Assembly: GCA_010015585.1 (NCBI GenBank)
Contig: ML975187.1
Reading direction: 5' to 3' (one strand)
DNA: 64,000 bases
Origin: Eremomyces bilateralis CBS 781.70
Taxonomy: Eukaryota
Shown: positions 47,330 to 64,000 of the stretch, piece after piece
Numbering within the stretch: position 1 is the first letter of the stretch
How the letters are laid out: the number at the start of each line of letters is the position of its first letter
The notes under the pieces: model-generated
Database searches by the model: none
What the model saw: the letters and a program-made list of their open reading frames with translations, nothing else
Told to the model about the DNA's origin: nothing
Program-made: the position numbers and the translations under genes

Positions 47330-50273
47330 TCACTTGTCCACACTCCCACTCCTCTCGACACCGATACCCCCGCCACCTAGCTCCCGCATACTCCAACTCG
47401 CCTTATGCGGCACCGCCCCCCTCGGCAACGACCCATAACTCAGTCCTCCCGACGCCGACCTCGTCCCCGACGACTCTGACCTCGACACCGATGTACTTCC
47501 ATCACTCCGACTCCTCCGAACCCGAGCAACCGTCAAGCCGCTTGCACCCCCCTCCGAAACCCCTGGTGATCTGGAGCCAGAGCTCCCGCTGTCCACACTA
47601 GCGTCACTGCGCGGACGCGACGCCGCATCCGCCGGCGTCCCATCCCACTCAACCCCCGTATCTATCCGCTCCAGCCGCGGACGCCGGGGTATGGCAATGC
47701 GCTCAGGAGACATATTCGGGCTCACAGACTGTGCCACGCTCGACGGAGCACGTGTGGTTTCGTCCTCATCTGCAGCGGGGTTGACCAGTACCGGATCCGC
47801 ATGGAAGTCCGCTGCAGACAGCGCTCGCTCGCTCCTGATATCCGGGTCCTCATCCTCGATCTTCGCGATCCGACGCACACTGCTGACCCGGAACCCCGTT
47901 ACGGGCGCCACGGTGCTGGTAGTGCTCTCGGACGCGAGACGCGACGCGTTGGGTCGCTTGCGCCAGAACAACAAGCTTTCAACGCTGATGGACGGTGATT
48001 TCTCCTGGGCGTCCTCCTCGGAGGGAGTCGAGCCTGCGCGGGCGAGGTAGGCGAAGTATTTCTCGCGGAGGCGGCGCCAGCGCTGCGGATGGAAGTCCTC
48101 AGTGGGGCGGTCGCGCATGATACTCATCCAGGAGGTGGCGGCGCTGATGGCGATGGCGACGAGGAGGAAGAGGGTGAGGAGGCTGTGAAGGACGATGATG
48201 ACAATGCCGATAGCGGTGGCGGGGATGCGGGGGAGGGCGAAGGGGGTGTGGAAGGTGGCAGCGAGGGCGAGGGTGGCAACCTTGCTGAAGCCGAGGAGGT
48301 AGACGACGAGAGCGTTGAGGCGGCGAGATTCGTAGGGATTGGCGTAGATGATGCCGCAGAAGGCGAGGGTTTCGACGGCGAGGAGTCCGAAGACTTGGAC
48401 CATCGGATGCCCGCTTGCCCCGCCGTACAATGTTGCACGAACGAACTCATAAGCTAACCAGTAGCAGAAGAAGAGCCACTGCGATCGGCGATACCGAGAG
48501 ACGAGCCAACCAAACCTAGTCATGTAGTCGATATCTTCGTGCACCGTTATCCCATCTTCGTTAGGAGTGTATTTAATGACCGGGACACAGAAGTGGATAG
48601 TACCCCTTTCACCCTCAGAATGCGAGACGCTGTCGCGGGAGATAGTCCACCACGGCATGATTTTGAGAACCCTTCCCTTCCCAACGCAGAACACTTCCTT
48701 GCCGAAGGTCCAAGTTCCACGCTTCATGCGATAGTAACCAGCGTATCCTGCAAGAGTGAAGCCGCCAATGAAGAAAAGGAGGAAGACCGTGGTAGAAATG
48801 CCTATGACTGCCGAAGCGCCATGATAGGTGAACTGGAATGTTGTAAGGAATATTATCATGAAGAATCCGATGAACAACGTCCTCAAGACTGCTGCTTGGG
48901 TGTAGAATTGCCAGTTCTTCCTGAAAAAACCAAGTCGATGACCTTTGACGAGATTGACCCGCATCATACCCTCCAGGGTCCATTTGAACAGTGCAACTGA
49001 GCTTCCGATTATAACGACGGCAGTGAGTAGCCAGAGGAACCCGGTCATGAACGCATTCGAGGCTGGGATATTTTCGAAAGAGAGCGTGCCCGCAAATCCA
49101 GAGTAATTTCCAGGTAGCGGTAGCCCAGCGTTAGCGGCTTTGCCATACCGGCTAAACCCGTTTGCCTCAGTCAAAAGGGCTCTCGTCGCCCACATATGAG
49201 TGGAATCGTCCGCGTCTCTTTTGTAGATCTTCCGGAGGTCATATTTGCCGGCAAGATTCTCGATTCGGAAACCAGTTCCTGAGGCACCAACGGCCATGGG
49301 GTTGCCCTTGTCCTCTCCAACTAGACGGTTGATCGAGCTTTGCATCGACTTGGTGAAAATCATTCCACCGGCCCACGCATAGTTGCTCCAGAATGCTACC
49401 AGGACACTGGGCAAGTTCAAAGACAAAGCCCCAGTGTAGTAAATGTGCTGGAAGACGGCAAAGACCACAAGAACAGACATGGAATGCGCATAGTGCTTCC
49501 TCATCTCAGGGACATTGTGGCCATAGATTGCTGTAGCGAAAGAGGAGACGATGGCAATGGTTGCGAAAACCCCCAATAGGGACCCGACTGCGTACGGGTG
49601 AGAGAACGTGGCGCCATTAGTGACCACCGCTGAGATACATCCAATTTCTGACTTCGTGGAGTTGGCAAATATTTGAAAGATGGCTCTGCCTTCGAAATCT
49701 GGAATCGTAAGGGCAATATCTAAGCCACATCAGCGTCATGTTTCCTCATTCCGAAAGTAGATGTCATACCAGGAATATTCGCGATGTCTTCAGGGGCGAC
49801 TAGGATATTCCCTCTGGCCTCGATCGGGATAGACTTGCTGAGAGGGCATGCGCTCCGGATATTGGCACTGCATGGGTTGAAGGGCAGCTGGAAACGGGTT
49901 TCGCCATATGCGGAGACGCCGATGTACACTATGAAGATCAGTTTCCATTGCTGCTCGACGTTGAAGAGATCGACGAACTCATAACCGCCTCCTTCGCCAG
50001 GGTGGTCGACCCTTGCAAATGAAACACCACTGTCATGTTATCCTTGTAAAACGCGGCATCGAACCTGGTCACCTTGACCAATGAGCTGCTGCCCATACAG
50101 TCGCCAAAATCCCCAGTATATAGGGCTGGCTTCCGGCTATCTCGGAGGGGGATCTTTTTGCCGTCAGGGCCCTGGACCGTGATCCATTTCTCTTTGGGGA
50201 CGATCGCCAACGTCTGTTGGAATACGGCGAAGAGGACGAGGAGGAACACGAGGATGCCACGGAAAACCGACAT
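47330..50273 (-). CDS. Flc/Pkd2-family TRP-like membrane protein with N-terminal ML-like domain
   Basis: Signal peptide; PALYTGDFGDC, VTRFDAAFYKDN, FNPCSANIRSACP; FQHIYYTGALSLNLPSVLVAFWSNYAW; many TM segments; 2 introns. Confidence 0.88.
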
Positions 50274-51563: not shown

Positions 51564-52900
51564 CTAAGTGTGGAACACCTTGTGGCCCGGACCGGAAGAT
51601 TGCCCGTTGCTCGCACCCGTAGCACTCTCAAAAGAGCCGTCTCCGTGATGCCAATCCGGATTATCCCAGTTGGGCAGGACATTGGTCAGATGTTCTGGCA
51701 GCTGATCCGGCCAATTTTTTCGAATCACCTGGAGCACTTCATCGTACAGGATGCGATATCCCGAGGGAGATAGGTGAAGACCTGCAACACATGAGCTTGT
51801 CATCAAACCCCGAACCGGAGCGACCATAACTCACCATCATGCAACAACTCCTCCAAGACTGGATTCGGTCCAAATTTTCGGCTGCCAGGTAGTACCGAAC
51901 TTCCAAGCTCCCAACCAGCTTTCAGCATGATTACTGTCCACATGTCCACGACTGGAACGCCCAGTTTCTCACCAAGTTCTCTCGTCGCCTCGGCATACTC
52001 TTTCGTCCGCTCAGCAGTCCGCCGGGGTTGATTGTAGCCTTTGGCTTGATCAACAACCCACTGCATGTACTCGTTGATCGGGGGTGGGGTAATGAGGATT
52101 ATTCGAGCGTTATGGGCCTTCACTTTCGCATGGGTCATTAGATGAGTTAGGTTTTCGAGGTACCGTGGAAGCGGAACGCTTTGATTGAGGTATGAAGTTG
52201 GCCAGCATGAGTCGTTGGCGCCGAAGAAGACGGTCTGCTTTATATGAGCCTTGCGAACAACCAATGAAGAGACTGAATATACCATGAGACGCATTCGGGC
52301 TTCGGTGACGGCTGGGATACAGCGGAGGAGGACTTTGATAGCCATATCTGTGTTGTAACCGCTGCTCCCAGTCAATGCATGCCACTTGAATGACTCAGGA
52401 GGAATTTTTGAAGTACCTTAGGCCGCGATTGACCACGTCCAACTTCCGGATATACGCTAGTGGATGGTCATTCTCTCGTCGTCGGGTCCACGTTGATTTT
52501 CTGACACTAACCATCTTGCAATGCAGCAGCGAATCCGAATCCTCGCTCTTGGGAACTAGCCTGCTGGGTGATAGAATCCCCTAGTAACAAGAAAAGGTCG
52601 TATAGCGGACCCTAATGGACTTAGATCGCAGACTTGAATATCAAAGGCGCGGAACCATACATATGCATTTTCATCATAAAGAACACCAGTTTCTGGAAAT
52701 TGTAACGCGTCAGACGGTACATACAATTCATGATGTATAATAGCAAATCGCGAGACTTGAGATTTGAGACTTGAGACTTGAGATTTGAGACTTGAGACTT
52801 GAGACTGGGGTCTGGGAACTGGGGACTGAGGATGACTTGGAGTTTTGTGTGTACCTGGGTGTCCCCCTGCTCGCAACATACTGGGCGACAGACGCGTCAT
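51564..52900 (-). CDS. SGNH/GDSL hydrolase (Iah1-like esterase), multi-exon
   Basis: LLLGDSITQ (block I), VVNRGL|SGYNT (II), VFFGANDS (III), D|GLHLS (V). The first exon (52900-52855) is tentative. Confidence 0.85.
52752..52807. repeat. Heptamer tandem repeat (GAGACTT) x8, imperfect
   Basis: gagactt gagattt gagactt gagactt gagattt gagactt gagactt gagactg. Confidence 0.9.
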
Positions 52901-53798
52901 GATGTCTCCATATGATTTGATCGAATTATAAGTATCGGTGTCTTAATTTTAGGATCTCATGTAAGACAAAAAGTGAATGACGGAAAGGCTCGAGCTCAAA
53001 GAGTTCGAGAAGATACCTTTATACGAGCAGGAGAACTTCATGTTGAAGGGTCACGAGCCGTTTCAGATGCACCGCCTGACCCACCCGGCCGGGGGTCTTC
53101 GGCTGCCCTAAGAATCACGATGCGGAGTTTCATGATAACTTCTAGGACACAACAATCATATTGTGCTTCATGTTTGACGTTTCCTATCACATAGTGTTTG
53201 AATGGAACATGGATCTCCAAACATATGGCTTTCCTTATCAAACTCACTTCTCGAGATACAGACATATGCTGGTACCGCTTAGTCATCCTCCATATCCATA
53301 AGGGCTGGTGAGATTTCTCCCTCACGCTAATAATGGTGGAAATTAATTGCTCAATTGGGCCTAGCGTGCAATTTCCTTCGTCCTCGCCTAGTTAGGGACA
53401 ACTTCAATTGTCAATAGTTATTCAATTTATTCCTTCTCTTACAGACCTCAGCATGGGGAATATCGCCCCTCCTCCAGGTAGTCTTCACATGTCCTATGAA
53501 GAAGCCTACAATGCTCTCAAGATCTATGGTATGCAGCATGGTTACGGCTTCGTACTCAAACGGAGCAACCCTCACGGTTCTGATATAAAGACGCGATATT
53601 ACTATCAATGTGATCGGTCCGGAAACTATCAGTCAAGAGCAAGGATTCTAAGCACAAGCACACGCATAATAGGGTGTAATTTTAGGCTTGTCATATTCAA
53701 GAACAAAAATGACGACCAGTAGAAGCTAGAGGTGCTACACAAACATCATAACCAACCCCGGTCGCTTAACCCTAGTACGCATAATGTCCAACTAACTA

Positions 53799-54222
53799 AC
53801 GTATTCCACAAGCGAGTGGCCCATACAAGCGAGTGGCCCAGCTCATTTTACTAGTAAATTCGACAAAATTCGATATCAATATCTCAACAACCACTGGATA
53901 ATATAGTCTGAAAACTTAGAGTTAGGTTTTCCTAGCCATTTCTAGCTTACTATTGAAATATTAAAGCCCTAGCTTTTACAGGTATAGAGATACCTACTTC
54001 TTGGCAAGATTTAGAGACCAAATCTCTATACCTTTATAACTATAAAAGATAAAGCTCTAAGATTCTAATAATAAGCTAGAAATCGATAGGAAACCCTAAT
54101 TCTAAGTTTTCAGACTATATTACCCAGTGGTTGTTGAGATATTGATATCGAATTTTGTCGAATTTACTAGTAAAATGAGCTGGGCCACTCGCTTGTATGG
54201 GCCACTCGCTTGTGGAATACGT
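53799..54222. mobile_element. Fold-back MITE of Fot1/pogo type (424 bp)
   Basis: 99-bp perfect TIR starting ACGTATTCC with a doubled ACAAGCGAGTGGCCCA; imperfect pairing continues to about 190 bp per arm; TA on both sides. Confidence 0.95.
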
Positions 54223-54402
54223 TATCGTAAGCGTATATTAGTAACCATAGAAAGATATAATTAAATCAATGACACATGCTAGGGTACGGCCGATGCAGAT
54301 AATGGCTACTATTCAAAAGGAGGATCCGAACACGCTAGTATCTGCTACCGATATTCGCGGCGAGAGGAAGGCAATTAGAGAGAAGTACTTAAATGGGAGG
54401 AG

Positions 54403-54622
54403 TGTTATGGTCTCAGGCCTGTGGCCTGAGCCCTTGGGTGTGGCTGGTGGATTGCATAGGGATTATCAGAAAAGCAAACATAGTTACACTGCATTAGGGC
54501 AGCAGAGGGGAGAGTCGCTACTTCACGCACAAAGGCGCCAGGAGATTCTCTCTTTCCCTCTCTCTTCAGTTTAGATTAATGGAACTTGGTAATCGCAGAT
54601 CTTGCGCATCCAAACCGTGTCA
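54403..54622. mobile_element. Solo LTR (220 bp)
   Basis: TG...CA ends with 5-bp TSD AGGAG (54398-54402, 54623-54627). Removing it restores the transposase frame NGRSPIKTLLD. Confidence 0.9.
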
Positions 54623-56427
54623 AGGAGTCCGATTAAGACATTATTAGATGGCCTGTCTACGCCGAAATAGGTCTTTACTATTAAGAAGGATGCGGATAAT
54701 CACGTATAAAGTCTCTTCTTTGCCCACCAGAAGCAGAGAATTGCTAAGCACCGGGCTCAATTTATGAAACGTTAGAGTCAGGTATGCTCCCCGCTAATAG
54801 CCTAAGAGGCGTTTCTAGAAGGCTTCCGGGAATGCCTCTTATAATTCTTTTATGGAACTGACTGGAATAGCTTGTCTACGCAAAGAGTCTATATACATTT
54901 AAGCTAAAGTGGAACGAGTTACTCAAAGACTATGTCGACCAGCGAGAACTTTGCCAATACTTACGTGACAATTAATGGCATATACGTACCGAGTGGGCAG
55001 CTGCTTAGACGTCTCAGCATCGACACTATAATATAATCATAACCTCTCCTGGTGAAGGAATGCATAAGGTATTGAAGGACTACCTTATGGCTTCAACAGG
55101 CGACTTGCTGCGTGTTGTTAGAAGGATTAAGCAGATAGTTAAGAGCCAATACAATAAGTATAAGAAACAGATTGCTTCTTCTAAACACAGCATTAAATTC
55201 GAGCACAGACTAGAGTCAATGCCATTCCTATCTCCCGGCATTTATAACATCCTTACACCAGCGGCAATTGAACGCATTAAACAATAGGATCTATTACGCC
55301 AGAAGGAGCAAAGACAACGCCGTAGCGGGCGTCCTTGTTCTGGCCTCTTTGAGAAGATAAACGGTCTTCCATGTCATCATACGCTGCGAGATGTAATAAA
55401 TTCTGGATCGACATTACGACCAAATCACCTTTACGACGATCATTGGCGCTATTAACGTGAGCAAGGACGGTCAATAAGCCTCTCTCCAAGGCCATATCAA
55501 TCTATCCTAGAGTCGCTTCCTGCTTAAACAAGAAGTGCACCGAGGAAGAACGAGGCATCAACTCGTCGAGATCCATCAGCTTTTGAACGACGTGTGCCAC
55601 CTTCTATCCCTCAATTTTAGCCTCCTCCTCAACCTCAGGGTCAAACACTTGCTGAGGTCTTACGACACCTAAACACCTCTGTCGCTGTGTTAATTCCTAC
55701 ATCTGCACTAGCTACGAACACTATAACTACTTCTATATCTGTGTCGGTCCCTACACCTACTCCTATATCTTCCCCTACTCTATCTTATTTGTCTTCACCT
55801 GTCTCTGTTACAGTGTCTGTCACTATGGCTTAATCCCCTCTACAGACTGCTTGGCAACCTCCGACGTTGGAAGAGTTCTTTACTGACATCGAACGTCGAC
55901 GGCTTCAGCCTCTTCCGCATAACAGCAGTGACTTTGGTACAGTGACCAATTTTTTGGCAGAGACAGGGCAGGAAAGGGACCGGGCAGAACTGATCGAAGC
56001 ACGAAATATGGCTCTCGCTACAAGCGGAGTATATGCTTCCTGCACCCCAACAATGGCATGGAATTATCACTTTGGAGATATGCAAGCTTTCTACGCCGCA
56101 AAATTTGCACAAGTCGATGCTCAAAATCCTCTTTTTGGGTCTGGGGATGTGCGTAGACAGCGTCCTAAGCGTGCTGCAGCAGAGACGGTTTCAAACGCTT
56201 GGAAAGGACTTAGCCCGCGCAAGAGACAGCGACGTCAGTAGAAAGAAGATAGGCCTAATAAGGAATACATTGAAACATTGAAGTTCGTTCGCAGAGGAAA
56301 ATGGGAAACTGCGCGCTAGGCCCAGTTGAGCAATTAATTTCCACCATTACTAGCGTGAGGGAGACATCTCATGCAAAGGAGAAATCTCAAATACGAAGGG
56401 AGAAATCTCACCAGCCTATCCATAACC

Positions 56428-57495
56428 TCAACGACGAGTATTAATCGCGTTGTGTGCATCCAACGTGTTAGAAATCTCCTCGAGAGAGTCCCATTCTTCC
56501 CTCGTCCAGTTGTTTGAAGCCCTCATACCCTGAACGCTTCTCCATATCTCGCGGAAGATCGCATCCGACTTGCGCTGCAACTGGGCCCGTCGGGTCTCTT
56601 CGCCCCGCCTCGACCCCCAGATCTCCATGTCCAATTCGTACTTCCGTCTCAACAAATCGGCACATCGCGCGATGCCTTTGGCTTTTGCGGCCGCTGCCTT
56701 TCCATCTTCTTCGTGTCCCGGAGGGTACAGCGGCGGCGGCGGCGGTTGTGCCCGGTTGCCCTCCGCGTTCTGACCGTAAGGCGCGTTGTAAAATGGCTCC
56801 AGATCCGCCCCCGATAACCCGCCTTTCTTCTTCTTCGGTCGGAGTTTGGTTAAGGCTTCAAACATCATGAAGAGCCCGAACGTTCCTAACACTGAAATGG
56901 AGGCCGAAATACCGTGCACAAGGGATATGATGGACGTTCTAATGGTGTCGACTTGGGTTCTTCCGGCCCCTTCAACGACGATACGGCAATCTGAGGCCGG
57001 ACAGGCTTGAGGTGCGTCGCAAATATTCGTCAGAGATATATTTGATCGATATGGTGGACTCGGCGGTTCCTGGTAGTAGGAAGAATAGTTATAATACTGT
57101 TGACCCTCCAGCCCGCTCAAAGGTAATCCGCCGCAAGAATACGGCAGCGTCCAGGCTTCCACGACACTGTTCGTGATCGACGTGTTAACCCGTCCTTGGA
57201 TGGCGACGAGGTTGGCTGGAAAAGGTTCCAGACCCCATCGAGCAGCGGTGATGGATAAAGCGAACAGTGGAGAAATGGAGCTGTGGTTGATGAATTTCCA
57301 AGCTTCCATCACGATCGCTGTCGCGCCAAAGATGCCTGACCGACAGGAATCCTTTTTTTTAGATTATCGTCGAAATCTTCCCAGGCCTCATGATGCGAGA
57401 AAAGGCCATACAACTACATGGGCGTTTGGAGATTGGGGGCAGTGCTTCGGTGCGAGGATACGAGGCAAGGCTGGAAGCCACCGATGCATTTTCAT
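56428..57495 (-). CDS. Putative single-pass membrane protein: Cys-containing ectodomain, TM, cytosolic helical C-terminal domain
   Basis: 294-aa ORF with hydrophobic IISLVHGISASISVLGTFGLFMMF, then KKKK, PPPPPLY and CADLLRRKYELDMEIWG...SDAIFREI. The upstream exon from ATG 57495 is tentative. Confidence 0.6.
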
Positions 57496-57876
57496 TTGCT
57501 AACGAATGCAGGTTTTGGCTTTAGATGTGCAGCAAGGCAGTCCACAGCCTTTCGACCGGAAAGCAGAGCAGCTCCAAAAGGCATTGAGACTTATAGTAAG
57601 CGCTACGTAATCTTGGACAGTGATTGATGTCGCCTTGAAACCGACTACGCTGGACAAGATTGCGATGTTGTTGAAGCTACGCCTTTGCTTTCGGTCGTGT
57701 TGTATAGTTTTATTATGGGAAGACTTCACTCGGATTGGGAACACGCGCGGAGTCTAGGCTACGGTGGCCTCGAACTGATCAACGGACGCGAACTGAACGG
57801 AAGAAGCGATTCCGATTGAGATAATTACATTGTAAGTTTCTTGGAACCAAACGGTGTCCTCGATCGAGTTAGTACT

Positions 57877-60523
57877 CTACATTTTATTGTTACCCTTTAG
57901 TCCTGTACGATATTTTCTTTCCGTCACCCCATTGCGCTTTATTCGACAGACAACCTCATCAGAGACTTCAATCTCTGCAACAAGATCCACGGTTAAGTAA
58001 TACCCGTACCCTTTTGCTTTCTTCTGTTCTCGAAGTTCATATCGTGGTATCGCGCCCATGTTTACCACCAAGTTCTTGATTTCATGGTTACCTAGAGCGA
58101 TCATCAGTATTCAGTTAACAATCCACGACCTTGACAACACGCTGACGCCAATTGGCAGACGCAACAACTTGATGAGCATTACGACTTACCATTTTTTAAT
58201 TCTGAGATGTTTGCTGGTGCTTCAGGAAGAGTGGTCGCCACGAAAGTCACACTCAGCTCATACCCTTTCTTGTGTTGATTCTTCGATGTGTGGCCTTCTA
58301 TAGGTATCGATGATTTGATCGGCGAGCCAGGAATGATGACATCGCCTCGTTTCGCGGCCCATATTATCTGACCCGGAATCAGCTTCCTGAGGTGAAACCG
58401 ATCGTTGACGGCTTTCCCATCATCATGCTCCGGCCTCCAGTCCTCGTAAAATTCACTGAGGCAGATGCCATAATGTCTCGGGCAAAATTCGACTTTGGTA
58501 GCCACCTCAGAGCCGATCCCCATCCCCTTGAGAAGGGCGCCCTGAACGACCGCGGTCCAGCTAGATGATCTGAGTAAGCAGCGGCCTACGCATCGGATGT
58601 TATTGTGCTTGCCAGTTGTCTGCTCTTTGGACTCCGATATGAGCAGTGCTATCAGCATACTCCTTGACCTTCTTGTAGAGGTATGGATTTTGAGCGAAAC
58701 CTCCAGACATAAATATATTCTGGGAGTAATGAGCATCTCAGGTGCGGGTAGATCGCATACACCCAACTTACTTCTACACGCAGGTACCCCTGGGGACGTC
58801 TTTTCATTTCGACGTTCCTCACTTGCCGTCTGATCATACCGATGGTCGTGTTTACGCTCTTCTCGAATATGTGTTCGAGGTCGGAACTACAACACGGCTT
58901 AGTAGTTAGATAACGATTCGGCGACAATGTAGCCTTACTGCGAGAGCTTAACGACTCCATCTTTTATGGCAAACTTGTGGGCTTCGGCAGGCTTCAGTGT
59001 ATGGAGCCTGTTGTCTGCATCGCGATATGTCTGAGGGAGCTGTATGTTTCCCTTGTCGGTGCTGTCGAACGCTTCTTTGACTGGCTTGAAGCGCTTGAGG
59101 AGGAGGCTTGTCAAAGGAGAGAAAACAGAGTGCCCTCCAGCCGTTACATCTTCCGAAAATAGGTGTACATTCGCTAACTTTGGCTCCAGCCACTCTAGGA
59201 AAGCCCTGTCGACAAAAGTTGCGCCGCATCGACTCTCGGATCCTGCTCACTGATAAGTATTTGTGCATATTGTTGCGCGCGATCTTACCGTCGTCTTTTT
59301 CAATCAAGGACAGCTTAAAAGGATCGATATTCTCAACACAGTATGTTGCGATATCCTCATACAGACGTTAGCTTCGTCGTTGACCCGGACGAATGTCATC
59401 CTAAGTATGGGTACTTACCACAGTGCCCCCGCCGGCATCAACAAGCACGAAGCATTCACCCTGAATTCATCAGAACCACTATTTATTCATAAAGAGACGA
59501 AAATCCCACTTCGATGACTGATGGGTGGCTTTTCGCCAGCATATCTTGAGTAGTGGACAATGCACATGCTTCTGGCTCCTGTACAACATAGAAGTCTCGG
59601 ATATGCGGGAAGAGACCTTTATGGCAGGCATGTCTTACTGCAGTGATGGTTGCATTAAGAGCATGGTAATCCCATATCTAGAAGATGTCAGTCGAGCGGA
59701 AACCGCTTCTCAGCGTGAGTATACAGAGCAAGCATGAACGTACGAGAGGGTGAGTCACGACGATGTCGAGAGGAACTTCACGAAGAGCTTCCCTTGCTGT
59801 CGCCATCATGTGTGCACGCCATTCTTTGGCAACCTTATCCAGGTAATCCTCAATGATCTCTCCCGCGTTCTTCCTCAAATGCTTCGGGAGTTCATAGTCT
59901 CGATTCCCGCTTTCTTGAAATTGCTGCAAGAGACTCAGGCCTTTCAGGAGATTTCGCAGCACCGCCAACTCTGTCTCTGGCGACTGAAGCATTAACTCTA
60001 ACTTGGTCCAGCGCAGGATCAAGGAGTCTTTGTCCATCGAGTAGCCCCATTGCTTTTCTCGGTTTTTCGCCGCCGAATAAGAGAACTCCGATGGCACTTT
60101 CTCTTGGTTCTCCTCTACCTCAGTTACACCTGGCCAGCGCGGGAACACGGTGATGTCCTGAATTGAGCTCTTCACAAGAGCATCATCTTGCTGGACCCAT
60201 GCTACTCCTGGGAAGTCCGGTGTCAGATTATGAGCATTTCGCTCTGAAGAGGACTCACCAGTGAAAGTTGTTCCATAATCTATGCCCAATAGGACCCTCG
60301 GGCCCGGTTTCAGTCCCTCCAACGGTGCTGCAGTTTCCGAGTCCTGGGGTTTCGGCTCCTGGGCTCGTCGTCGCACAGGCATGTCATTAAATATCGAGCC
60401 TCTTTGATGTCTGGTTGACTCCGACGCGTTAGCCACTCGATGTCTTTGCGCTTCCTCCTGGCCATCTCTCCCTCGCCCTTCTCTTCGTTCGGCATCCCTC
60501 TCTCTTACCCGTGGAGAGTCCAT
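57877..60523 (-). CDS. Atypical Hsp70-family (HSPA12-like) actin-fold ATPase, about 10 exons
   Basis: LLGIDYGTTFT|GVAW, KVPSEFSY, VVTHP, EPEACA, FVLVDAGGGTV|DI, CGATFVD, SGGFAQNPYL, WTAVVQGA, CPRHYG. An open spliced frame can be reconstructed, including one GC-AG intron. Confidence 0.88.
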
Positions 60524-60915
60524 TGTTTTGATGGTGTTAGGAAATGGAAAAGCTACGGGAAGCAGGTAGGAAATGGGAAGTTGCCATCGACCAGCCTTGT
60601 CAGCCAGGAAGAAGAGCTGTTTAGGCGGCCTCGGTGTAGAACCTAGTCTAGCCTTGCCGCGAGACCCAGAAACCTTTTCTCGTGTACGCATCATATCGGC
60701 TGTAATGGCAAGGCTGAATTTTCATGCTGATGCACTGCCCCAATCAAGAAGCAACCAAACTGCCAGGTCATAGGTAGGCTCTGCATAACAAATGATTGAT
60801 AAGTGTGAAGGATAAGGCTGGACTAGCTACCAGCTCAATTCGGTTTCAACTACGATACCCTCAAGCTCACCGGTCAACCGTTCTCGACAAGCTATCTTCC
60901 GTGGCTCTCTAAAAA

Positions 60916-62253
60916 ATGGACTTATTACACTGGAGAAAGGACGAGAGAAGTGCCTTGGATATCAGAAGAGACTACAACTCACGAATCCAGAGGTTCTTCC
61001 AACAGGTGGAGGTCAATCTAGATTCTTTTATCGGCGAGGGGGACTCTCTGGAGAAGCTATTCCGATGGAGCGCCAGCGTCAACAGCGCGAGACGATATCT
61101 CAGTAATCGCCTTTCCACTGAACAGAGGAATTGCGATATTGCTGAGGAGGAGCGGGACAGGTTAAGGGCCCAGCTTCATGAAGCAAACCAAGAACTATGC
61201 GGCCTACACAGCGAAATCAAACAGTTGGTCCTGGATCATTCCGATGCACTTGATTTTGAGAAAGCAGCCCGCAGGAACGAAGTAAATAAAATCAAGCAGG
61301 AGTACAAGGACGAGACGAATAGACTAAAGGGACAGCTCCTTGTGAACCAGGACGATTTCAAGCGATGGCCAGACGACAAACTCAAGAGCAGGTTCAAGGA
61401 GTTACAGATACTGATCAGTAATATCACTGATCCGGGCAGAGTTGAACTGCGAGTTCCAAGAGGTCGGCCACTCGATATCGATTTCGACCCGACTGGATTT
61501 TTAGCTCGCGCTGGTGGGGAGAGGGCGCATGTGCTGTTCAAAAGCATCATCTGGGTGATCCTTGACGAGCACTTCTTCTCCTTACCGTATGGCTTTGGAG
61601 TTCTCGGCCCAGCGACACCAGAAAATACACTATTAGGGGCATATGGATCGTGGTATACTGCTCTAGGAGGGAAAGTTGAACCACGTAAGTCTCCTATGAC
61701 TTTTCTGAGGTGCTCCATAACGATGGCAATTCTAATGGGAATTCTAGTTCCTTGCATTGCCGAAGGCCTCAAAGTCTTCCACACTGACCAACTGGCAAAC
61801 GGCTGGAGGTCCGCAACCTTCCAAAGCCTCTACTCAGCTATCGTCAGTCCAACAGCCTCCAACGCCACCGCAGCCCAAAGCTCTGCGAACATTGACGCGG
61901 CGGTGAAGCGAATATCTCAATTGTTCACGGCAGCCTCGCAGTATTTCTCCAACCCGTCTCCAATACAAGATCCTGAAATCCTCCAAGCAGCGAGACTAGC
62001 GCGAGATATCGCTGTTCAGTTTGGTGTGCATCCCGCTCACCTACGGCTTGTGATACCTCAGCATACCGACCGAGTGCAGATTGGAAGCAACTACCACGAT
62101 TATCGTAACGGACCAAGTGACATCGGATCTCTGGTTACAGTAGACTTGGTGACACTGCCAGGTTTGCAGAAAGTCGGGAATGGGAGGGGCGGTTTGCAGG
62201 GTGTCCTGACAATTGTACCTTGTGAAATCTGCACTCAAACGGACGCGGAATAG
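60916..62253 (+). CDS. Coiled-coil protein with GrpE-like C-terminal beta region (function inferred)
   Basis: 445-codon ORF including an in-frame 63-nt intron 61685-61747; heptad-rich N-terminus, DDKLKSRFKELQILI, WRSATFQSL, VTVDLVTLPGLQKVGNGRG...TIVPCEI. Confidence 0.7.
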   Translation: MDLLHWRKDERSALDIRRDYNSRIQRFFQQVEVNLDSFIGEGDSLEKLFRWSASVNSARRYLSNRLSTEQRNCDIAEEERDRLRAQLHEANQELCGLHSEIKQLVLDHSDALDFEKAARRNEVNKIKQEYKDETNRLKGQLLVNQDDFKRWPDDKLKSRFKELQILISNITDPGRVELRVPRGRPLDIDFDPTGFLARAGGERAHVLFKSIIWVILDEHFFSLPYGFGVLGPATPENTLLGAYGSWYTALGGKVEPRKSPMTFLRCSITMAILMGILVPCIAEGLKVFHTDQLANGWRSATFQSLYSAIVSPTASNATAAQSSANIDAAVKRISQLFTAASQYFSNPSPIQDPEILQAARLARDIAVQFGVHPAHLRLVIPQHTDRVQIGSNYHDYRNGPSDIGSLVTVDLVTLPGLQKVGNGRGGLQGVLTIVPCEICTQTDAE

Positions 62254-63097: not shown

Positions 63098-64000
63098 ATG
63101 GGAGGAGAGCTTAACGGACTGTGGGATGTTCCCACCAAGACAGTGTCATCTGGTATTGGTATGTCCGTGTGGAATGGACTGGCAGCCTTGCTTGTCACGA
63201 TACCGGTTGTAACCCTCACGATAAACACGATAAGACTTGGACATAGAGCATGGCCGCAGACGCGCGTCTTGAATTACGGGCTTATATGTCTGAGCCTGTA
63301 AGTCGAAAGCTCAACTCCTAGCACTGTGGGAAATATTTGAACCAGAGAATAATAATAACGCTCATCCAGATACCTCATTGTCCACTGGATTGACTCCATC
63401 ATCCACGTATCTCGAACGAAAGTGACGTACGGCTATATCCTCATTTCAACCTTCTTCAGCGTCCTCAAGATTATATCGGACGTGCTTGTCCTTTGCGGGA
63501 GTCTGAAGCTGCTCTTTCGACTCGAACACCTATCTCCTCGGTTTGGAATGGTAGAGTACAGAGGGTTAAACCGGCTCTTCCTCGCATTCCTCTTTCTTTC
63601 ATTTTATCATATCTGCCTCCTTTTTGCGCGTGATATCGCTTGGTTGTACGCTTCGGACCCTCAGGTCATACAACTACTCGCAACGGCTCGGAATGGGTTT
63701 GAAATCGCATATATGGCCATGCAGTTTTTGGGAGCAGTGATTGCGTTCTCTTGGGCTCGTGATCTTGATACGGTATCCATCAGCGGCTACTATCAGAGAT
63801 ATATAGTAAGCACAGACATCTGTTGTTATAGATCCTTGTTCTCGGAGGACTCGAAATGGCTGATTTCAGATTATAGCGGGAGGCACCTGTTTCATTACTC
63901 TGCCTTGTTGCGCGCTCTTTCTGTGAGATTGTCATCGTTGGTCAGCTAGACCGATGGCCGGCGCATTTGGCAACAATCTTCCGTGCCAGAGACGTTACGT
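63098..64000 (+). CDS. Polytopic membrane protein of unknown family, truncated by the window end
   Basis: Exon 1 MGGELNGLW...WNGLAALLVTIPVVTL...GLICLS, intron about 63298-63369, exon 2 with further hydrophobic segments, intron about 63806-63876; frame still open at 64000. Confidence 0.65.

Follow-up and report, generated by a model that had tools for sequence, protein, structure and literature searches.

Within a 64,000-nucleotide stretch of contig ML975187.1 from the Dothideomycete Eremomyces bilateralis CBS 781.70 (the window), three genes form a conserved module: a gene for an Hsp70-like ATPase (A), a gene for a coiled-coil partner (B), and a gene for a membrane protein (C). The pairing of A and B is far more than chance, because 14 of the 19 informative loci show it, and B is likely a dedicated cofactor of A. 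A preliminary description, made from the letters of the window, had proposed that A and B are a dedicated pair in which an ATPase that lacks the usual substrate-binding domain and EEVD tail is served by a GrpE-like exchange factor, in a layout typical of non-self or defence modules. The dedicated pair and the architecture of the ATPase stand, whereas a defence module and a GrpE relationship visible in the sequence are not supported.

The ATGs of the pair lie at 60523 (minus strand, A) and 60916 (plus strand, B) with 392 bp between them, and the stop codons are at 57877-57879 (A) and 62251-62253 (B). The corresponding deposited proteins, P0022 (945 aa; A) and P0001 (424 aa; B), are encoded on the same 140,972-bp contig. 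Both genes are intact; the open reading frames (ORFs), the stop codons and the joins in assembled contigs all bear out the earlier reading of two divergent genes across this spacer. These contigs come from a public sequencing run (X1) whose RNA nature is our guess, and the evidence taken from it consists of contig joins and coverage. A 3623-nt X1 contig joins all nine introns of A exactly as in the splice model and a second contig joins the one intron of B; with ten joints at canonical intron ends, the contigs are best explained by spliced RNA. They start at 60502 (minus strand, A) and 60806 (plus strand, B), so that their 5′ ends are 303 bp apart and enclose a shared divergent promoter region (60503..60805, assigned to no strand). 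A search of the spacer (60383-60915) found neither a trimeric heat-shock element nor a stress response element (STRE).

Linkage of the two genes was surveyed in JGI metagenome contigs, where a degenerate-pattern scan based on the B alignment gave 30 loci. Homologues of A were called by tblastn (with P0022 and P0023) and by a hidden Markov model of the A family over six-frame ORFs, and the two agree. Nineteen of the 30 loci are informative, and in 14 of them an A homologue adjoins B. Specifically, A lies directly upstream of B on the opposite strand, within ~0.4-1.2 kb, in 13 loci (L001, L002, L004, L005, L007, L008, L012, L013, L014, L019, L020, L021 and L023) and is present on the same strand as B in one (L025); five loci have no A homologue in the 1.5-10 kb upstream (L009 and the identical L011, L024, L028 and L029), and the remaining 11 have too little flank to judge. 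Allowing for near-copies (L008 with L021 and L017; L002 with L013), ~12 distinct lineages at 29-58% pairwise identity carry the linkage, and the dedicated, co-located pair of the preliminary description is thereby upheld, both of its genes being covered by X1 contigs. Two layouts may be recorded in passing: in L020 (5094-7853) the partner ORF reaches ~920 codons and faces the ATPase gene, and in L025 the ATPase, membrane-protein and partner genes all lie on one strand.

In a maximum-likelihood tree of B, built on the first domain exon with 14 linked rows (13 loci and the window) and five unlinked rows, one branch (support 98/94) separates the linked from the unlinked rows, and in 500 shuffles of the labels no equally strong clustering arose. 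Linkage thus characterises the clade to which the window's B belongs, and since end branches measure 0.2-1.4 changes per site, it has survived deep divergence. The unlinked clade is without the WPDDKLK motif, its ORFs often extend up to 850 codons, and its neighbours are unrelated genes (a GT4 glycosyltransferase, a GNAT protein, a beta-lactamase-family protein and a Tle1-like lipase fragment). Across 11 loci the pairwise distances of A correlate with those of B (Mantel r 0.41, a value reached in 67 of 5000 permutations), which shows co-inheritance of the two genes that is confounded by species phylogeny. When the fungal profiles were run against 401 Pseudomonadota genomes, a sample of one phylum, no relatives of A or B were found; two marginal matches to B (E 0.006-0.009 per genome) are about the chance number, and A had zero matches at E <= 1e-15; this sample speaks neither for presence nor for absence in bacteria. 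A literature search found no description of the A/B pair.

The ATPase and its partner protein

Gene A (57877..60523, minus strand) has 10 exons and nine introns according to the splice model and the X1 contig, with coding exons at 60382-60259, 60207-59744, 59677-59510, 59460-59419, 59355-59289, 59242-58939, 58886-58772, 58719-58613, 58560-58190 and 58091-57877. Its product has 658 aa if translation begins at the ATG at 60382 and 705 aa if the ATG at 60523 is used. The start may be at 60382, where the next ATG in frame lies, because the transcript-like contig begins at 60502 and leaves the ATG at 60523 outside it by 21 nt; because contig ends are unreliable, the start codon stays as either 60523 or 60382. 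The spliced product is identical to residues 48-662 of P0022. One intron (58561-58612) is of the GC-AG type, and its joint is present in the X1 contig (CT..GC ends on the plus strand). A candidate 98-nt intron after the ATG at 60523 (GTAAGA...CTAAC...CAG) was rejected, the X1 contig being continuous there. Separately, an out-of-frame ATG near 60496 (minus strand), read by eye, opens an upstream ORF of ~60 codons that overlaps the ATG at 60382; were transcription to begin upstream of the ATG at ~60496, this ORF might influence how the ATPase is translated.

The spliced product contains GIDYGTT, DAGGGTVD, EPEACA and GGFAQNPYL, all kept in the family alignment A3, which we take to be the phosphate-1 (GIDxGTT), phosphate-2 (DxGGGTxD), connect (EPxAA) and adenosine (GG...P) motifs. 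Consistent with this, a profile of 21 A-family members searched against the PDB matches the DnaK nucleotide-binding domain (NBD) chain 1dkg_D (E 8.5e-9) together with many DnaK, mortalin and Hsc70 chains, and the distant relatives P0029 and P0037 exceed the PF00012 cut-off. Profile and motifs alike thus place A in the Hsp70 superfamily by its NBD. The profile matches are confined to NBD residues 115-384 and stop at ~384 even in full-length chains, the protein ends in GLKGNNKM rather than EEVD, and none of the canonical Hsp70 features (substrate-binding domain, lid, EEVD tail) was found in A. Taken by itself, the window's A protein matches no Pfam family and nothing in the PDB; its single exons, C-terminal ones included, match no Pfam family, and phmmer against the PDB gave no meaningful match. 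The NBD profile matches, the ATP-binding motifs and the GLKGNNKM end together indicate, on the strength of sequence comparison, that A is an Hsp70-fold ATPase without a recognisable substrate-binding domain or EEVD tail, much as it had initially been read, and that it is probably active. Close relatives are few (P0023-P0025 at E <= 3e-29, the next at 3e-12), UniRef names the relatives “Actin-like ATPase domain-containing protein”, and we presume that A belongs to the HSPA12 branch.

Gene B (plus strand, 60916-61684 and 61748-62253) is read from an ORF at 60916-62253 of 445 codons. Because this ORF holds an in-frame 63-nt intron (61685-61747; GTAAGT...CTAAT...TAG), the protein has 424 aa and not 445; P0001 is without exactly the 21 intron-encoded residues, and an X1 contig joins 61684 to 61748 at GT..AG ends. 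The C-terminal strings quoted in the preliminary description are present in this plus-strand ORF. The predicted architecture is a helix of ~100 residues followed by a domain of 290 aa. An AlphaFold2 model of the whole protein (mean predicted local distance difference test score, pLDDT, 73) shows a long single helix at residues 44-142 (61045..61341, plus strand; pLDDT 82-90 over residues 60-130) and then a mixed domain. The helix, whose length varies among homologues (alignment A1), is presumed from the model to be a coiled-coil dimerisation region. The conserved C-terminal domain (residues 131-424; 61306..62250, plus strand; alignments A1, A2 and A7) carries the motifs QLLVNQ..WPDDKLK, DPTGF, FFSxPFGFG, ANxWRSATFQ, QFGVHPA, PGLQKVGNGR and VPCEI. 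Folded alone (131-424, read through the intron, with 46 aligned sequences), it is modelled at pLDDT 83 and a predicted template modelling (TM) score, pTM, of 0.83, and the only poorly modelled part is the 21 intron-encoded residues. This domain model is helical, with a helix and then seven short strands at its end; the last helix and the small beta domain (61969..62235, plus strand; domain-model residues 222-310) form the sole beta region of the model.

No Pfam family was found for B, either in its own protein or among the 46 and 64 family members scanned. A profile search of 1.84 billion representatives returned 611 relatives at E <= 1e-3, of which 170 reach E <= 1e-30, and many of the relatives measure 700-1176 aa and carry the domain C-terminally. 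Among 30 long relatives scanned, 28 lack any Pfam family at E <= 0.001 and two have chance-level matches only, below the curated cut-off (PsbI, Leu_zip). Searching the PDB with B by phmmer gave no meaningful match, and a B profile that included full-length members matched coiled-coil proteins only.

The membrane-protein gene and the surroundings

Gene C (56428..57309, minus strand) is an ORF for a single-pass membrane protein of 293 aa with one transmembrane helix. The protein has an invariant N-terminus (MEAWKF...ARWGLEPFP), a variable region with Cys and N-glycosylation sites, the transmembrane helix and a conserved C-terminal tail of the form C..LLR..Y.L...IW. All seven stand-alone homologues (205-317 aa) carry MEAWKF, at the N-terminus in six and after a 54-residue extension in P0185. 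Besides the window, nine of the 30 loci have a C homologue near the pair, downstream of A in L001, L004, L014, L019, L020 and L025 and on the far side of B in L008, L012 and L017; as C is found on either side of the pair, it travels with it as a separate gene. No Pfam family matched C at E <= 10, and an ESM Atlas search found nothing at >= 0.8. The deposited P0022 (945 aa) fuses A to C through a 735-nt intron (~58009 to 57277), a model that omits the MEAWKF start of C and the last 37 residues of the ATPase, and a similar fusion occurs in P0023 (928 aa), the model from Cudoniella acicularis. We rejected the P0022 fusion and its intron, since the X1 contig is continuous there and keeps the stop codon of A. 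The X1 contig of A does extend across C, so overlapping transcripts are possible, and the contig does not show a single mRNA. Between the ATPase stop and the start of C, the same contig skips 47 nt at 57463-57509 with non-canonical AG..GC ends (plus strand), a gap that may reflect an unusual intron, a difference between strains or an artefact of assembly.

On the other side of the pair, a hydrophobic, multi-pass membrane-like ORF (63359..64000, plus strand) is cut by the end of the window and matches no Pfam family. L005, L014 and L027 have homologues of it 0.9-1.4 kb downstream of B, on the strand of B, and it is a possible fourth gene of the cluster.

Beyond C, a 68-nt inverted-repeat pair (93% complementary) bounds 53309-56371, a 3.06-kb region that is A+T-richer (GC 0.44-0.45) and ends 57 bp from C. 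ORFs inside it have no Pfam match, and it is possibly a non-autonomous transposon with terminal inverted repeats (TIRs). The earlier remark that the pair is adjacent to a transposable element thus has some basis in this inverted-repeat-bounded element, whose identity as a transposon is only possible. Inside it, 53797-54224 holds an inverted repeat of 196 nt, 91% complementary and closed by a 36-nt loop, which is a long hairpin or an insert resembling a miniature inverted-repeat transposable element. Farther away are genes for a GDSL-family lipase/esterase (51806-52417, minus strand; PF13472, E 7.6e-11) and for a multi-pass membrane protein of 765 aa (47330-49627, minus strand).

Likeness to GrpE and the competing explanations

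The explanation that we favour, tentatively and at somewhat less than an even chance, is that A, B and C are a conserved accessory gene cluster of filamentous ascomycetes, in which B is a dimeric cofactor that sets the nucleotide state of A and C supplies a membrane site or a client. What is conserved, co-located and covered by spliced contigs is plain; from there on we infer, and this applies to the physical binding of A to B, to exchange-factor activity and to the role of C. In such a scheme A would be a member of the Hsp70 superfamily, of the HSPA12-like kind, that lacks a substrate-binding domain and has its ATP-binding motifs intact. B, transcribed divergently from a shared promoter of ~300 bp, would dimerise through its N-terminal coiled coil, and its C-terminal unit, a helix and small beta domain of GrpE-like shape, would dock on the ATPase domain of A. 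There it would control the nucleotide state of A, most likely by way of ADP release, as GrpE does for DnaK, while C would probably serve as the membrane anchor or the client and thereby determine where the pair acts.

It is informative to examine how far the likeness to GrpE reaches. In a search of the B domain model against 48,161 PDB representatives (VIA), which is independent of Foldseek, GrpE chains are the top-ranked PDB analogues of the helix and beta unit of B. Rank 1 is human GrpEL1 (9bls_B; figures 5.7, 5.5 and 105; aligned chain residues 104-217), rank 3 is a Geobacillus chain (4ani_A; figures 5.5 and 3.7; 102 of residues 104-213) and rank 8 is from E. coli (1dkg_B; figures 5.0, 6.3 and 106), and B was also aligned to residues 86-197 of 1dkg_A. 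The aligned ranges cover ~90% of the C-terminal half of GrpE and reach the end of the only beta region of B. With the full-length model of B the VIA list was filled by coiled coils. Foldseek places four GrpE chains among its top 50 for the domain model, at E 0.87-1.9.

A number of results weigh against a cofactor of the GrpE type. Foldseek with both B models found nothing in the PDB at E <= 0.1. Profile alignment (hhalign) of the B domain alignment with 31 GrpE sequences (30 Pseudomonadota genomes and E. coli) gave a probability of 0.1% (E 0.46), and with E. coli GrpE alone the probability was likewise 0.1%. The B domain profile (A4) has two matches at E <= 10 among all PDB sequences, neither of them GrpE, and PF01025 is not among the families listed for sets of 46 and 64 B members, where any unlisted family matched at most one and at most two members, respectively. 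Within the B domain, the GrpE-aligned helices are ~180 residues apart, which makes B a much-elaborated variant of a GrpE-like fold at best. The wider scheme also has to accommodate a paralogous clade of B (the five loci L009, L011, L024, L028 and L029) that adjoins no Hsp70-like gene, and a C whose eight-homologue alignment (A8), by inspection, contains no HPD, so that C is not recognised as a J-domain protein. We hesitate to make much of the shape alone: to judge by the models, the resemblance of B to GrpE is real but weak, and it weighs mostly by its context, because the sole PDB family that binds Hsp70 ATPase domains ranks first for a protein encoded beside an Hsp70-like gene. The GrpE-like terminal segment of the preliminary description consequently fares unevenly, being favoured by the VIA ranking and by neither Foldseek at the above threshold nor any of the sequence and profile tests, and a role for B as a GrpE-type exchange factor is plausible but unproven.

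A rather unlikely but substantial alternative is that B is a scaffold of the type of MIEAP or the plant GIL1-DUF641 proteins, which self-assembles or recruits cargo at a membrane. B would then be a client or adaptor that A remodels or disassembles, and its likeness to GrpE would be coincidental. In the ESM Atlas the B domain lies nearest to unnamed fungal clusters (TM 0.65-0.72), and one nearby Basidiomycota cluster has the GTPase family MMR_HSR1 in 57% of its members. The nearest clusters that bear a Pfam family are plant GIL1_IRKI_C (0.81 and 0.77) and animal MIEAP (0.79), which, like B, place a C-terminal domain after a coiled coil. In the structural comparison, 199 residues (147-420) align with an arthropod MIEAP cluster at a TM score of 0.51 by query, in a row marked “under the bar”; Atlas feature scores below 0.9 are no more than a lead, and all of the GIL1 and MIEAP scores fall below their bars. 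The very long N-terminal regions of many B relatives, nearly all of them free of Pfam families as described above, would suit a scaffold, whereas PF16026 and PF24994 are not among the families listed for 64 B members (E <= 10; an unlisted family matched at most two members). A plant DUF641 protein, COST1, is reported to bind the GTPase RHD3 and to raise its activity by ~20% (PMC13189119). This case lends the scaffold idea some support, and it would fit a family whose members regulate NTPases without being GrpE-like, to which B may belong. No connection between Hsp70-like ATPases and either Mieap or GIL1 emerged from a literature search.

Less probable still is that A and B (and C) are merely co-regulated neighbours on a bidirectional promoter, serving the same stress or developmental programme with no contact between their products. 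Short-spacer divergent pairs are common in fungi and no Hsp70-like gene accompanies the paralogous B clade, but within the clade of the window's B the linkage is seen in each of the 14 informative rows, whose pairwise identity is 29-58%, and it persists through rearrangements in which C has switched sides (L008, L012 and L017) or all genes have come to lie on one strand (L025). Gene order in fungi rarely outlasts such divergence without selection. We regard a non-self, defence or selfish accessory module of fungi, in which the ATPase would be the switch and the effector would be the membrane protein, as the least probable of these explanations and very improbable in itself. The distribution of the cluster looks patchy among named genomes, few named species occur among the homologues, most of which come from soil metagenomes, and the TIR-bounded element lies just beyond C. 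Against this, scanning the proteins of the pair and C revealed no HET, NLR, NACHT, HeLo, nuclease or toxin domain, and PADLOC returned a single weak match, to the coiled-coil part of B (HEC-07, E 0.0044). The defence role proposed at the outset is thus unsupported, and an A-B-C cluster with B as cofactor remains our preferred account.

Comparison with known systems

Known counterparts of such a pair are DnaK with GrpE and mitochondrial Hsp70 with Mge1 or GrpEL1 (PF00012 and PF01025; PDB 1DKG, 4ANI and 9BLS), which likewise combine an Hsp70-fold ATPase with a helix and beta partner. GrpE and B are alike in having a long N-terminal helix ahead of a C-terminal helix and a small beta domain, an arrangement that in B is predicted. 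Should the GrpE-like reading be true, A would be an Hsp70-type ATPase that has an exchange factor and has neither a substrate-binding domain nor a J-protein, which would change the view of how this branch of Hsp70s works. Mieap/SPATA18 (PF16026) and plant GIL1, IRKI and COST1 (PF24994; PF04859, DUF641) also join a coiled-coil N-terminus to a conserved C-terminal domain; the Pfam models for them do not detect the fungal B family. In E. coli, HscC is an atypical Hsp70 encoded beside a membrane-anchored J-protein, DjlC. The cluster resembles that arrangement in setting an atypical Hsp70 beside a membrane-anchored partner, and differs from it in that C has no J-domain or HPD and HscC has a substrate-binding domain.

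Closest to A itself are, as far as the HSPA12 label that we assign from general knowledge is right, vertebrate HSPA12A and HSPA12B and the fungal “actin-like ATPase domain-containing” proteins, in which an Hsp70-type NBD with large insertions is likewise found without a canonical substrate-binding domain, lid or EEVD tail. The accessible part of a 2026 review (PMC13580251) gives the function of HspA12 as unknown and, unlike what we propose for A, describes no partner protein for HSPA12; our literature search likewise found no cofactor for HSPA12-type Hsp70s. A partner gene that has stayed attached to an HSPA12-type ATPase through deep divergence, together with a membrane protein that travels with them, provides three concrete proteins to study together, and hence a testable handle on an orphan Hsp70 branch for which the GrpE label is kept as a hypothesis. 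One can also imagine, as a long shot, that the B domain family is a very old, GrpE-derived cofactor of HSPA12-type ATPases of which Mieap and GIL1/DUF641 are other branches, and that in fungi, amoebae and bacteria, and perhaps in animals too, the HSPA12 branch works as a two-part machine tethered to membranes by proteins like C; if true, this would offer a mechanism for both HSPA12 and Mieap.

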